24,179 nucleotides of DNA from a virus. The position numbers and the translations under genes are program-made. The stretch is from UHGV virus genome UHGV-0071260; one strand, written 5' to 3'. Shown in pieces: positions 2,611 to 13,381 of this stretch. How positions within the stretch are numbered: the stretch's first letter is position 1; each line of letters starts with the position of its first letter. The notes beneath the pieces were generated by a model. It was not told where the DNA came from. It worked only from the letters and a program-made list of their open reading frames with translations, and searched no databases.

Positions 2611-3150
2611 ATGAAAAATGATTACGGCGGCAGCCATACGCCGAAAGAAATAAAAGACTTATGGCAAACGCCAAAACCCGTTTTTAGAGGAATGGATCGA
2701 GAATTCGAGTTCGTCGCGGATGTGGCGGCAAACAAGGCAAACGCATTAATACCGCGATATATAACCGAAGAAATGGACACGCTCCATTATCCGTGGGGAG
2801 CGGTGGCGATGCCTGGTGAGTATGTCTGGATGAATCCGCCATATTCTAATCCGGGGCCATTCGTTGATAAAGCGGCGCTTGAACACAGCCGAAATCATAT
2901 CGGATGCGTAATGTTATTGCCCGCTGACATTTCTGTTAGCTGGTTTATGAACGGCGTGGAGACGGCAAACGAATGCCGATTAATCACGCGCGGGCGGCTG
3001 GCGTTTATCAATGCTGCAACAGGGAAACCAGTAAGCGGGAACAATAAGGGGAGCTTGTTCCTGATCTGGCATCCACGATGCAGACATGAATGTATTTTCA
3101 CGCAGATAACACGTAAAGAGCTATATGCAAGAGGTGCAGAAAATGAATAA
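2611..3150 (+). CDS. DNA N6-adenine methyltransferase, phage Dam family
   Basis: NPPY catalytic motif (WMNPPYSNP) and N-terminal WQTP motif typical of the phage Dam family; AAGGGGG RBS. Confidence 0.8.
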   Translation: MKNDYGGSHTPKEIKDLWQTPKPVFRGMDREFEFVADVAANKANALIPRYITEEMDTLHYPWGAVAMPGEYVWMNPPYSNPGPFVDKAALEHSRNHIGCVMLLPADISVSWFMNGVETANECRLITRGRLAFINAATGKPVSGNNKGSLFLIWHPRCRHECIFTQITRKELYARGAENE

Positions 3151-3463: not shown

Positions 3464-3947
3464 CAGGTTATTAGCCTGCGTTTATGTCGCCGTTTTCGTT
3501 ATCATCAATCTTATTGTTAACCACTGTGGCCCGTGGGTAATTCCGATCACCACGGTAGCCGCCGTGTGTGTCAATATGATGATTCGTGATTTTCTGTTAT
3601 ATGACGGCGGCCTTAAATGGTCGGCTACAACATGCGCCGCCGCTGGCGCAATCACGGTGCTGATAAATTACGACGCCGGAATGGTGGCGATCGCCTCATT
3701 CGTCGCGGTTGTTTCCGGTTCGCTTATTTCTGGCGGCGTTTACCGGGTTTTACCTGGTGATTTCGATTCGAAACGCTGGCCTGCAAATATAGCGTCAGCC
3801 ATAGGCGATGCGTTGATTTTCCCTACACTATCGTTTATGGCGTTTATGCCGGAAATATCAGCGATGCAATTCATCTCAAAAATGGCAGCGGTAACGGTGA
3901 TCACTATCATCATGCGCCGCTATTTCACGTTTGAGGGAAGAAAATGA
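3444..3947 (+). CDS. compact polytopic inner-membrane protein (about 5-6 TM helices)
   Basis: Six hydrophobic segments in 167 aa; GGGAGGAAG RBS; stop overlaps the downstream ATG (ATGA). Confidence 0.6.
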   Translation: MKMVAIDRLLACVYVAVFVIINLIVNHCGPWVIPITTVAAVCVNMMIRDFLLYDGGLKWSATTCAAAGAITVLINYDAGMVAIASFVAVVSGSLISGGVYRVLPGDFDSKRWPANIASAIGDALIFPTLSFMAFMPEISAMQFISKMAAVTVITIIMRRYFTFEGRK

Positions 3948-4732
3948 GCAAGGGCAAACATTGGTTAAATAATTGGCTTAGAAGTTGGGTGGTGTGGTCG
4001 CTGTACGACGGCAGCGGGTACGCCGTTAAAGATTGGGCGGAAGCGGGATATAAGTGCTATTGCTTCAATTATGACGGTGCAAATCACGGCGATTATGAAG
4101 GCGTTAAAATCATTCATCCTAATATTGAATACGTTAACGTGTGGATTGACAGCCATTTCCTGGTAATGTTCTCGCCTGAATTGTCTTCTTATCCAGCACC
4201 TGACATTATATTGGGCTTTCCGCCGTGCGACGATCTCGCCGTTTCAGGCGCTCGCTGGTTCGCTGGTAAACGGGAAAAAGATCCTGCCTTCCAGGTAAAG
4301 GCGGCGTATAACGCAAAACTGGTAGAAAAACTGGCGAATATGTATAACGTGCCGTGGATGGTGGAAAATCCGGTGGGCGCACTGTCAACGTTATGGCGCA
4401 AACCTGATTTTATCTTCAACCCGTGCGCTTACGGTGGCTACCTGCCGGAAGACGATAAACACCCTGCTTTCCCTGAATACATAGCGGCCCGCGACGCATA
4501 CACGAAGAAAACTTGTATCTGGTGCGGGAATGGATTTAAGCAGCCGCTATTCCGGCCTGTGCCAATGCCTGATGAATGGGAAGACAGTAAGCAGCACGCT
4601 AAGTTAGGAGGAAAGTCGAAACGCACTAAGATGATCCGCTCACTAACGCCGCGCGGCTTTGCCCGTGCTGTATTCCTGGCTAACGACCGGGCCATCAATC
4701 GCACTACGCTTAACCGCGTTTTACCGGACTGA
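3944..4732 (+). CDS. C5-cytosine DNA methyltransferase-like protein, divergent (PCD in place of PCQ)
   Basis: Motif I-like DGSGY, motif IV-like GFPPCDD, motif VI-like VENPVG in canonical order; short C-terminal region; GAGGGAAG RBS. Confidence 0.55.
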   Translation: MSKGKHWLNNWLRSWVVWSLYDGSGYAVKDWAEAGYKCYCFNYDGANHGDYEGVKIIHPNIEYVNVWIDSHFLVMFSPELSSYPAPDIILGFPPCDDLAVSGARWFAGKREKDPAFQVKAAYNAKLVEKLANMYNVPWMVENPVGALSTLWRKPDFIFNPCAYGGYLPEDDKHPAFPEYIAARDAYTKKTCIWCGNGFKQPLFRPVPMPDEWEDSKQHAKLGGKSKRTKMIRSLTPRGFARAVFLANDRAINRTTLNRVLPD

Positions 4733-4755
4733 AATTTACAAAATGGCGCCATTGC

Positions 4756-4769
4756 GTGATGTGGATCAC
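4756..4769. promoter_or_regulatory. palindromic motif GTGAT-N4-ATCAC (copy 2 of 3), flanked by AATGGCGCCATT-type palindromes
   Basis: cGTGATgtggATCACATAA; perfect 12-bp palindrome AATGGCGCCATT at 4742-4753 and near-copy AATGGCGCTATT at 4772-4783. Confidence 0.3.
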
Positions 4770-4891
4770 ATAATGGCGCTATTCACTTTGTTCTGGTGTA
4801 TCCATTTTGTATGCTTCAAGCAAACGAAATGCTCTTTAAAAATCCGGCAGCGCTGAAATGCGTAGAAATCACCTGAAAAGGAGAGAGCATT

Positions 4892-6325: not shown

Positions 6326-6504
6326 AAAACGAAGTTAAAGATCTGCAAATAGATATTCAGCGCGATGAGCATGATTTAGCTACAGTCCGACAAATCCAGG
6401 CTTTTCATATGCGCGAATTGCTTGCATTGAAAGAGCTTGAGAGGAAGTTAGTCCAGTCTATTTCTGATCGTAAACGCCTTATTGCTCGTTACGGGGGCAA
6501 ATAA
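6322..6504 (+). CDS. hypothetical small protein
   Basis: 60-aa ORF, start overlaps upstream stop. Confidence 0.4.
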   Translation: MKNEVKDLQIDIQRDEHDLATVRQIQAFHMRELLALKELERKLVQSISDRKRLIARYGGK

Positions 6505-7226
6505 TGAATCTGGAATCAATTCTTAAATTCCACTTCCCAAAATCACCGCGTTTGTCAGATGAAAGCCGGGGCACGTCCCCGGATGCGCTTAATACTACGG
6601 ATGCGCTAACTGCCGCTGGTATGGCGCAATCGCGCGTAGAGCTTGGTTATAGCGCTTTTCTGGGAAAGATGGAACTATCACAAGCCGAAAAACATAAGGC
6701 TGTAGTTTTGCTTACAGAGCGTTTAAGAGCTATGGCAAAAGATTACGAATACGTCATGGAGCTGGACGAGGACAAACGCAATGATCTTATTATTCTTGTT
6801 GCCGTTTTCGCGTTTCGGGATTACTGCCAGAGTGCCGCGACAGAAAAAACTTGTATGGATTGCGGCGGATATAAATTTACGTTTGACGACTACGGAGAAA
6901 AACACCTTTGCAAAAAATGCAAGGGGCATGGAAAAGTTCGCAATCATTGTAAACGATGCAAAGGGCGCGGCGAGATACCGGATAAAGCAGCCAGTGAAGC
7001 AGCGGAAATGCCAGTGTTCAAAACGTGCCAGCATTGCGGCGGGCGCGGGTACTCGCGTTTCCCTGTAGATCTTGTCCGGCGTGCGGTTAATCAGCTTGTA
7101 TTTCCGGTAAGCCGAACAACGTGGTGGAAGAAATACCGTGCTTTCTATGAAGACGCCATTACTGAATTGTTCAAAGAAGAGGCGCGGGCTGATAACGAAA
7201 TTAAACGAGTGACACGGGGTGAATAA
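6504..7226 (+). CDS. Q: late-gene antitermination protein Q-like, with an expanded DnaJ-type zinc-finger region
   Basis: Lies directly after ninG-rusA as in lambdoid phages; N-terminus MNLESILKFHFPKSP recalls Q82-type antiterminators; four CxxCxGxG-like repeats. Confidence 0.6.
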   Translation: MNLESILKFHFPKSPRLSDESRGTSPDALNTTDALTAAGMAQSRVELGYSAFLGKMELSQAEKHKAVVLLTERLRAMAKDYEYVMELDEDKRNDLIILVAVFAFRDYCQSAATEKTCMDCGGYKFTFDDYGEKHLCKKCKGHGKVRNHCKRCKGRGEIPDKAASEAAEMPVFKTCQHCGGRGYSRFPVDLVRRAVNQLVFPVSRTTWWKKYRAFYEDAITELFKEEARADNEIKRVTRGE

Positions 7227-10867: not shown

Positions 10868-11086
10868 ATGATTTTAACGTGTAACGAATCGAAATTGGGC
10901 TGCTTTGAGGAAGGCGTACAGTACACGGCTGAAAAACCGATGGGATTGTCTCCTAAATTTCCGTTTATCGTCGTGACTGACACTTACGGTCACTTATGGT
11001 ATGCAGGGCCGCTAGGCGGTATTGGTCGTTATGTTGTCCGTAGTTCGGATGGGGCGATGAAGGTTACTTTTACGGAAGAAACGTAA
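10868..11086 (+). CDS. hypothetical small protein, tandem paralog family member 4 of 4
   Basis: ATG 10868 (or 10862) after AGGGG; motifs FEEGVQYTA and VVTDTYGHLWYAG. Confidence 0.5.
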   Translation: MILTCNESKLGCFEEGVQYTAEKPMGLSPKFPFIVVTDTYGHLWYAGPLGGIGRYVVRSSDGAMKVTFTEET

Positions 11087-11087
11087 A

Positions 11088-11103
11088 TGTGATCTGTATC
11101 ACA
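11088..11103. promoter_or_regulatory. CRP-consensus-like palindrome TGTGAT-N4-ATCACA (copy 3 of the GTGAT-N4-ATCAC motif)
   Basis: aaaTGTGATctgtATCACAagg matches the CRP consensus core TGTGA-N6-TCACA; intergenic, directly after a stop codon. Confidence 0.35.
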
Positions 11104-11112
11104 AGGTTTACG

Positions 11113-11144
11113 AAATGGCATTGTTTCGGCAGTGCCATTTTGTT
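11113..11144 (+). terminator. putative intrinsic terminator or regulatory hairpin
   Basis: 11-bp stem with one mismatch (AAATGGCATTG / CAGTGCCATTT), 6-nt loop, followed by TGTT. Confidence 0.4.
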
Positions 11145-11184
11145 ATAAAGAAGCTGAAGAGAGAACGATGCGGAGGGTAGAAAA

Positions 11185-11463
11185 ATGAAACGCTGGATTA
11201 ACAAAGAAGTCGAATCTCGCTTAAACGCATTTTGGGAGATGGTGGAGAAAGAAGACCCAGCACACGCTGCAAGCCCTTACCTGAACAACATCGAATATCA
11301 CTACATTGCAGCAAACAACGCGGAGTTCGAAGAAGAAGGTGGAGCCGACAAGTTCGCACAAAGCAACGCATTCAACAACGCAAACGAAATGATGATGGCA
11401 GTCATCGAACAGGCAGAGGAAGACTACGAATGCAAATCACTTGAATTTGCACGCATGGCATAA
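11185..11463 (+). CDS. hypothetical acidic protein
   Basis: GGAGGG RBS; 92 aa. Confidence 0.5.
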   Translation: MKRWINKEVESRLNAFWEMVEKEDPAHAASPYLNNIEYHYIAANNAEFEEEGGADKFAQSNAFNNANEMMMAVIEQAEEDYECKSLEFARMA

Positions 11464-11613: not shown

Positions 11614-11618
11614 AACAC

Positions 11619-11634
11619 GGGGCCGGATGGCCCC
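11619..11634 (+). other. GC-rich stem-loop (GGGGCC-GGAT-GGCCCC) in a short intergenic spacer
   Basis: Perfect 6-bp GC stem with tetraloop; no U-tract after it. Confidence 0.3.
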
Positions 11635-11656
11635 ATCAAATCAGAAGGGTGTAATC

Positions 11657-11950
11657 ATGAAAAGCGCTAAATTTATTGCTTGCTGTTTTGTTGAAGTTCC
11701 CTATAACGATGCGTTCTATCACGCTACTTTTACCGATAAGAATGGGAATGATCACGTTATTGTCGGCAAGCGTGGTGACTGGCTTTATATAACTGATGAT
11801 GATTGCATTTTCACTAAAAATCAGTTGCAAAAACTGGTTATCGGTAAACAGGAACAGGAAGACTATCAAATCATCCCGGTGGAAAGACTGAAAAGGGAGC
11901 AGAGAATTAAACGCGCTCAAGAGGAATTAAATAACATAAAGGGTATGTGA
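11657..11950 (+). CDS. hypothetical protein
   Basis: ATG 11657 with GAAGGGTG RBS; the track start at 11627 lies inside the hairpin. Confidence 0.5.
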   Translation: MKSAKFIACCFVEVPYNDAFYHATFTDKNGNDHVIVGKRGDWLYITDDDCIFTKNQLQKLVIGKQEQEDYQIIPVERLKREQRIKRAQEELNNIKGM

Positions 11951-12533: not shown

Positions 12534-12768
12534 GCTGTATAAAGTCAGGTGTAAAGGCGAATACCCTGGCTTTACGGTTGGTTGCGAATATCTGGGCCAC
12601 ATTGGGTACGGCCCTTTCGGTGAGTTGGGAATGAATACGATTGACGACGACGGCGACAGCAGGACGCTCGATCTTGATACGGATGACTTCGAATATATCC
12701 CTCCAGTTACTTACCGTGCCGTAGATGATTTCCTGGCTGAACAAGAAGATGATGAAGAGGATGATTAA
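12517..12768 (+). CDS. hypothetical protein with acidic C-terminus
   Basis: Putative TTG start at 12517 preceded by GGAGGGGTGG; start codon uncertain. Confidence 0.4.
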   Translation: MSASNKLYKVRCKGEYPGFTVGCEYLGHIGYGPFGELGMNTIDDDGDSRTLDLDTDDFEYIPPVTYRAVDDFLAEQEDDEEDD

Positions 12769-13277: not shown

Positions 13278-13339
13278 CCATAATCGCGCATAAAAAACAA
13301 ATAGATTAAAATATTTCCTAACAATGCGAAATTGTAATT

Positions 13340-13362
13340 GCCCGGCCCGCGCCGGGTTTTTG
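13340..13362 (+). terminator. intrinsic terminator upstream of the holin gene (candidate tR'-like element)
   Basis: Stem CCCGGC / GCCGGG with loop CCGC followed by TTTTT; in a 104-bp AT-rich intergenic region. Confidence 0.55.
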
Positions 13363-13381
13363 CTTTGTTGGAGGTAAATCT

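Follow-up and report, generated by a model that had tools for sequence, protein, structure and literature searches.

The stretch of DNA analysed here, 24,179 nt of the virus genome UHGV-0071260 (the window), is by its sequence an E. coli prophage of the mEpimmI type (mEp021-like, Nus-dependent) and shows 83% to 88% identity to mEp554, mEp044, mEp010, mEp013, mEp021, mEp515, and MagusPhagus. The mEpimmI phages are non-lambdoid, Nus-dependent temperate coliphages whose N-like antiterminator Gp17 acts at nutR1, nutR2, and nutL (PMC11893012). All genes of the window lie on the plus strand, and a gene for a Q-like antiterminator is followed by ca. 6 kb of small genes and then by the genes for holin and lysozyme, terminase, and head proteins. 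Within the block of small genes, a gap of 98 nt (11087-11184) reaches from the stop codon of a 72-aa gene (11084-11086) to the ATG at 11185. The four elements of a preliminary description of this locus, i.e., the gap itself, a palindrome, a hairpin, and a pair of promoter-like hexamers, are all present at or close to where it had put them, and the features of the locus are the following:

6504-7226, plus strand: Q-like antiterminator gene (PF03589 and PHROG 127)
10868-11086, plus strand: upstream gene of 72 aa, the stop codon of which abuts the conserved module described below
11088-11103, without strand: CRP-type palindrome TGTGATCTGTATCACA with its centre at 11095.5, matching TGTGA-N6-TCACA at 10/10 positions
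11110-11143, plus strand: RNA hairpin of a predicted terminator, ACGAAAUGGCAUUGU-UUCG-GCAGUGCCAUUUUGU, with 15 pairs, 3 of them G-U, at -19.4 kcal/mol
11121-11149, plus strand: weak sigma-70-like hexamers TTGTTT (11121-11126) and TATAAA (11144-11149) separated by 17 nt, with a TG at 11141-11142 in the extended -10 position
11138-11146, plus strand: T-tract TTTTGTTAT, the first bases of which pair with the upstream A-tract
11171-11187, plus strand: RBS GGAGGG (11171-11176) and ATG of the downstream gene of 92 aa (11185-11463, PHROG 7287)

Such gaps are rare in the small-gene block, as the preliminary description had pointed out. In the ORF chain of our analysis, only two gaps of at least 40 nt lie between 7226 and 13278, and the other one (12534-12630) is probably coding sequence. 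The upstream 72-aa gene (10868-11086) corresponds to the RefSeq CDS WP_021516875.1 in strain M1/5, and a search for family matches returned none. On the same strand and upstream of the gap lies the boxA of nutR2, TGCTCTTTAA, at 4830-4839, while the gp17 gene is located outside the window. The order of genes, with the gap 3′ of nutR2 and Q and 5′ of the lysis genes, places the locus within the early-right operon. A nut site (boxA/boxB) in the gap itself was considered and rejected, given that the only boxA of the window is the one at 4830 and that the UUCG loop is not A-rich. A Q-dependent late promoter in the gap was rejected as well, based on the absence of the module from mEp021 and a better candidate at 13278-13381. 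The latter segment, directly before the holin gene, carries a conserved GATTAAAATATTTCCTAACAATGCGAAATTGTAATT followed by a strong terminator (13340-13357) and has a TAAAAT and then a -10-like AACAAT in the initial transcribed region; it resembles lambda PR′/tR′ and is a candidate target for the Q-like protein encoded at 6504-7226. Another G+C-rich hairpin of the small-gene block, ACGGGGCCGGATGGCCCCAT at 11617-11636 just 5′ of a 107-aa gene (11627-11950), has no T-tract on the plus strand and a terminator-like tail on the minus strand, and it is also present in mEp021, mEp554, and mEp044.

The hairpin of the gap had been described as an 11-bp stem with a T-rich tail at 11113-11144. Hairpin and tail are indeed there, but the stem is larger and comprises 15 pairs at 11110-11143. 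Its plus-strand fold reaches a z-score of -5.9 (0/200 shuffles fold as well), whereas the minus strand of the same region folds at only -10.2 compared to -19.4 kcal/mol, a roughly two-fold asymmetry. Directly 3′ of the stem, the transcribed strand continues with the U-rich tract UUUUGUUAU, and the predicted release zone lies at about 11143-11150. The locus carries all sequence hallmarks of an intrinsic terminator, i.e., a stem-loop, a U-tract, and a structure that is conserved on the strand of the genes, and, with a nut site 5′ of it and an N-like protein acting on the operon, it is placed as expected of a terminator subject to N-type antitermination.

Conservation of the hairpin was assessed in 34 aligned distinct homologs, which keep 99.4% of the stem cells paired. 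Eight pairs are without variation and six change on one side only, staying paired through switches between A-U and G-U, while all four positions of the loop vary freely and the TTTTGTT of the T-tract (alignment columns 57-63, window 11138-11144) shows no variation at all. The frequent changes in the stem are all from A-U to G-U and thus compatible with pairing in plus-strand RNA only; the internal U-G pair, which likewise can form only in plus-strand RNA, is invariant. This strand-specific mode of pairing agrees with the two-fold asymmetry of the folding energies. Double compensatory changes in the stem are absent from the 34 homologs and the shuffle control for covariation was not significant, so that the statistical case for selection on the structure is modest. 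We found 23 variants of the hairpin, and 20 of the 21 variants belonging to the module of this gap (site C below) fold at -15.7 to -20.2 kcal/mol, with the remaining one at -11.7.

Automated annotation gives a mixed picture of the same segment. Depositors of three GenBank records used ARNold to annotate a rho-independent terminator here (T7 in mEp044, T10 in mEp554, and T8 in mEp010). Our strict terminator scan of the window did not list the hairpin at 11110-11143, probably because its stem runs into the T-tract, and in a crude terminator scan the upper stem ranks only ca. 14th in the window. A search with the outer-stem pattern in one genome per species retrieved only unrelated generic terminators from other phyla. 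Across the whole window, Rfam gave no match at gathering score, and the sole match with E ≤ 1 was a spurious mir-33 on the hairpin. A small ORF across the hairpin (ATG at 11116, 21 codons) was rejected for lack of a consistent RBS and of coding-like variation, and the CDSs annotated over the hairpin in mEp010 (L019, 988-1098), mEp044 (L002, 7861-8067), and MagusPhagus (L020, 975-1223) are probably overcalls of gene-calling programs.

We conclude from its sequence that the core function of the module is very probably that of a rightward intrinsic terminator. The hairpin with its T-tract forms the conserved core of all 44 distinct copies of the module and is specific to one strand, which, together with the ARNold terminators of the three GenBank records, supports the earlier suggestion of a transcriptional boundary. 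The accompanying idea that hairpin formation could occlude a promoter is not supported, because it is in the RNA of transcripts arriving from upstream that the hairpin forms. A cruciform switch at the level of DNA is likewise without support, as the invariant G-U pairs make for an imperfect inverted repeat.

The module was detected by BLAST and pattern scans in mEp044, mEp554, mEp010, and MagusPhagus and, among 5,426 complete E. coli genomes, in 32; many IMG/VR contigs of the mEpimmI-like type, mostly of roughly 54 kb, contain it as well. Seven complete E. coli genomes, with M1/5 among them, show 100% identity over the 69 nt around it. From all sources, 44 distinct variants were recovered, 34 of which were aligned. 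The module was not found in mEp021, mEp013, and mEp515 and is therefore dispensable. Where present, its ca. 75 nt follow the ends of at least nine unrelated genes and precede at least four different ones, and conservation sets in precisely at the upstream stop codon. With so many pairs of cassettes joined by a single element, the module behaves as a portable junction.

This arrangement, in which roughly 75 nt join many cassettes on either side and are conserved from the stop codon onward, would also be expected of a sequence that serves mainly as a conserved linker for cassette exchange by homologous recombination, with the palindrome and the hexamers having no regulatory role. We consider this very unlikely as a full account of the module, since a linker evolving neutrally would not be expected to retain a hairpin specific to one strand, with a variable loop and with stem changes that G-U pairing tolerates, nor to have an exact 54-nt register in common with two other junctions (see below). 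A role as linker is compatible with that of a terminator, and the one does not exclude the other.

The palindrome at the start of the gap follows the CRP motif N3-TGTGA-N6-TCACA-N3, which at class I promoters is located at -61.5 (PMC10199772). Directly behind the stop codon and with a core of 10/10, it is as perfect as the preliminary description had it, and 11088-11103 is the only perfect TGTGA-N6-TCACA of the window. Including its flanks (AAATGTGATCTGTATCACAAGG), it matches the 22-bp CRP consensus at 17/22 positions. Matches to the CRP core with at most one mismatch occur four times in the window compared to 0.61 expected, and no shuffle gave four.

Among relatives, the two halves of the palindrome behave differently. 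The left half GTGA, usually as GTGATCT, is present in 34/34 aligned copies. An intact right half TCAC, by contrast, is found in only 13 of 44 distinct variants (ca. 30%), so that the CRP-like site is real and perfect in the window but not a constant part of the module. Its alternatives are TCGCA, CCGCA, TCTCA, CTTCA, CAGCA, and one homopolymer of 14 C. This homopolymer, in E. coli MFDS1019527 (L016, ca. 985-1000), stands in place of the right half and is possibly the product of slippage or an assembly artefact. Even so, of the two C of the right half, the second never changes and the first is retained in at least 31/34 homologs, and these positions pair with G residues that are contacted by CRP. 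Judged by the tolerance of CRP for imperfect sites, many of the degenerate alleles might still be weaker CRP sites. For the allele of the window, we regard it as likely that the perfect palindrome binds cAMP-CRP.

Other readings of the palindrome were less satisfactory. A conserved RNA hairpin was rejected because only 74.5% of its cells are paired and its outer and inner pairs are broken in one-third to two-thirds of homologs. By inspection, the half-sites do not fit LexA, FNR, or LacI-type operators, and neither a class II CRP register nor a leftward promoter finds a usable -10 at the required distance. All members of the group share one immunity (PMC11893012), and the conserved arms could hence reflect a common phage regulator, with the palindrome as the target of the MarR-like HTH protein gp14, a Cro-like protein, or the immunity-I repressor at secondary operators. 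We view this as highly improbable, given that the PL and PR regions of mEp021, where the repressor must bind, are devoid of the GTGAT-N4-ATCAC palindrome. Furthermore, the arms equal the CRP half-site GTGA/TCAC exactly, and it is the G in the half-site that separates CRP sites from FNR sites.

Downstream of the palindrome, the pair of TTGTTT-N17-TATAAA that had been noted as sigma70-like exists and stands in a lac-like class I register, but it is weak. The -35 matches at 3/6 positions and is situated in the hairpin, and the -10 has no T at -7; in all 34 homologs the corresponding hexamer is TATAAA or TATATA, with the last base A and never T. These deviations, a -35 of 3/6 and a -10 without terminal T, explain why the hexamers at 11121-11149 were not listed by our consensus promoter scan. 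A transcription start at about 11156-11157 would put the centre of the palindrome at -60.5 to -61.5, a register that holds only if TATAAA at 11144-11149 is the -10. The distance from the 16-mer to the -35 is 17 nt. At lac P1, there are likewise 17 nt between the CRP 16-mer and the -35, and CRP is centred at -61.5. The hexamers nevertheless fall short of the core elements of a class I CRP-dependent sigma-70 promoter (a -35, a spacer of 16-18 nt, and a -10 with A2/T6). With the CRP site being only partly conserved in addition, we do not file this locus among such promoters, and a CRP-dependent restart promoter for the small genes from 11185 onward is, to us, a tentative proposal that we somewhat doubt.

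The geometry of palindrome and hexamers recurs at two further junctions of the window, so that the locus discussed above can be called site C:

Site A, 1338: palindrome CGTGATTGCGATCACA in a 98-nt gap between a 206-aa gene and the next gene
Site B, 4755: palindrome CGTGATGTGGATCACA followed by 17 nt, TTGTTC, 16 nt, and TATGCT

All three sites have in common the 16-mer, 17 nt, TTGT, 13 nt, and TTTTG (inside CCRTTTTG). As a composite pattern of 54 nt, GTGAT-N4-ATCACA-N17-TTGT-N13-TTTTG, this architecture occurs three times in the window (1339, 4756, and 11089) compared to 0.00 expected, and 68 matches in IMG/VR are all of the A, B, or C site types in mEpimmI-like contigs, mostly of roughly 54 kb. 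The sequences between the shared elements are not alignable among A, B, and C, and local RNA structure differs, with the right arm pairing downstream at A, the palindrome forming the tip of a longer hairpin at B, and palindrome and hairpin lying apart at C. Identical linear spacing despite differing RNA structure makes an architecture at the level of DNA the simpler reading. The recurrence of CRP-type sites with one and the same lac-like spacing is a real and non-random pattern, and the register common to site C and its two paralogs is, like the sequence features of the gap, their conservation, and the strand asymmetry of the hairpin, a matter of direct observation. Each of the three palindromes contains a GATC (11091-11094, 1347-1350, and 4764-4767). 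The phage has its own genes for a Dam-like N6-adenine methyltransferase (2611-3150) and for a cytosine methyltransferase (3944-4732).

What follows 3′ of TTTTG is TAAACT at site A, TATGCT at site B, and, one base later, TATAAA at site C. Relatives of site B, gathered with an anchor that excludes the palindrome, keep GTGAT/TCACA in 32/32 distinct variants around a hypervariable centre, TTGT in 32/32, and TATACT in 31/32. The site lies just upstream of the nutR2 boxA (4830-4839) and the boxB-like hairpin GCGCUGAAAUGCG in a region spanning 4755-4865 and, though labelled only as TERM_4 in the mEp021 record, looks like an internal promoter that would feed nutR2 and might depend on CRP. At site A (1338-1398), alternative hairpins arise from pairing of the right arm GCGATCACA with TGTGATCGC (1372-1380), and these are followed by CCGTTTTGT. 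The hexamer at its -10 position varies among relatives (TAAACT, TAAGCC, TAAACC, TAAACA, and TGAACT) and is thus unlike a selected -10.

Similar elements are found around the main early promoters of the group. The PL region of mEp021 consists of TTGATC-N16-TAAACT followed by nutL and has a CCATTnTG-TAAACT segment in common with these sites. The best PR candidate, TTGACT-17-TATATT, has directly next to its -35 a 15-nt stretch that also occurs in site C (AAGTATACAAAATGG, then ATTG). We further noticed a recurrent motif, CCRTTTTGTAWACT, at 1549-1600 and 2424-2467 of mEp021 (L022) and at 4738-4746 (minus strand), 4802-4810, 1385-1393, and 11135-11143 of the window. It is placed in the -10 region of PL, on the minus strand abutting the -35 of PR, and in inverted pairs at sites B and C. 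In the window, CCRTTTTGT is found five times versus 0.48 expected, and the crude terminator scan has it after a hairpin at A (plus strand), B (minus strand), and C (plus strand), so that it could be a motif of terminator U-tracts rather than of promoter spacers. From the arrangement of their elements and the similarities to PL and PR, it is plausible that A, B, and C form a family of promoter-like elements, of which B would be the strongest candidate and C the weakest.

If this promoter-like character were what matters, the module would mainly serve as a class I promoter activated by CRP and belong to a set of three (A, B, and C) that start or boost early-right transcription, and the hairpin would be secondary, e.g., as an insulator. 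The identical register of the three sites, equal to the spacing at lac P1, speaks for this, as do the conserved TATACT and TTGT of site B just 5′ of nutR2, the similarity of the -10 region to PL, and the combination of invariant palindrome arms with a hypervariable centre that is expected of a site for a dimer. There is also precedent in temperate phage T1, several promoters of which are governed by host CRP (PMC6737242). At site C, however, no variant has a T at -7 and the -35 remains at 3/6, ca. 70% of variants have lost the right half-site but practically none the hairpin, and the -10 of site A is not conserved. We therefore find it unlikely that the module is primarily a promoter.

Our preferred reading, to which we incline by a small measure, sees in the gap a module of mEpimmI prophages that is portable between gene junctions and combines a Gp17-antiterminated terminator with a CRP-type site and a possible restart promoter. 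RNA polymerase without Gp17/Nus modification would form the hairpin at 11110-11143 and release its transcript at TTTTGTTAT, whereas complexes modified at nutR1 or nutR2 would pass through the module as they do at tR2-tR4 in the nin region of lambda. Being located 3′ of Q, the module would control just the accessory genes that begin at 11185 and the read-through toward the lysis region. At high cAMP, CRP bound to the palindrome might activate a weak extended -10 promoter that overlaps the 3′ arm of the terminator, and a start near 11156-11157 would yield a 28-nt leader carrying the RBS. With no nut site downstream, such restart transcripts would be expected to end at the strong terminator at 13340-13357. 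For termination, read-through with Gp17, CRP binding, and promoter activity alike, we argue here from sequence and from what is established for related systems. An extended version, in which the junctions at 1338, 4755, and 11088 would all be wired to host cAMP-CRP, each through a CRP site in the lac class I register that overlaps with terminator-like RNA structure, such that unmodified transcription stops and restarts in a CRP-dependent manner, with one of the restarts feeding nutR2, strikes us as decidedly unlikely.

The firm result, as far as sequence can tell, is an ordinary but well-conserved terminator module that is portable and belongs to a prophage family described only recently. The mEpimmI phages are reportedly as common as lambdoid phages in human faecal E. 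coli isolates, and experimental characterisation has so far been limited to their N-like antitermination system; CRP is mentioned zero times in the paper on the group (PMC11893012). If the CRP sites work, a prevalent family of gut coliphages would read the carbon status of the host at defined points of the early operon, which would provide a testable link from diet or cAMP signalling to prophage gene expression. Wiring of all three junctions to CRP would couple lytic progression, or the expression of accessory genes in the lysogen, to the carbon state of the host in the gut. If only the terminator works, the module would be an ordinary lambda-like tR element whose value lies mainly in annotation, given the spurious ORFs across it in several GenBank records.

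Among known systems, the closest parallel to the predicted terminator are tR2-tR4 of phage lambda, which are likewise intrinsic terminators in a delayed-early rightward operon, 3′ of nut sites and among small non-essential genes, and the phage that carries the module is, like lambda, a temperate coliphage that depends on Nus factors and has an N-like protein, Gp17. Unlike its lambda counterparts, the module lies downstream of the Q-like gene and so cannot gate the expression of Q, is absent from some members of its group such as mEp021, belongs to a non-lambdoid phage, and has no sequence similarity to them.

Class I promoters of the lac P1 type share with the module the TGTGA-N6-TCACA, the 17 nt to the -35, a weak -35, and an inferred centre of the CRP site at -60.5 to -61.5. 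They differ from it in that the module has no T at -7 of its -10, a terminator hairpin between CRP site and -10, a right half-site that is not conserved in relatives, and a putative start. Direct control of a temperate coliphage by host cAMP-CRP has been demonstrated experimentally for phage T1 of E. coli, where it represses the promoters pir, dam, and recE (PMC6737242). As in T1, cAMP-CRP acting directly on promoters of a temperate coliphage would link their expression to the carbon state, though the geometry of the module suggests activation where CRP represses in T1, and the two phage families are unrelated.

Finally, the module resembles morons and the cassette boundaries of lambdoid phages as a short conserved intergenic segment with terminator and/or promoter signals between interchangeable accessory genes. 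Whereas a classical moron consists of one gene with a promoter and a terminator of its own on either side, the module has the reverse layout of a predicted terminator followed by a putative promoter, forming one junction that serves many cassettes.
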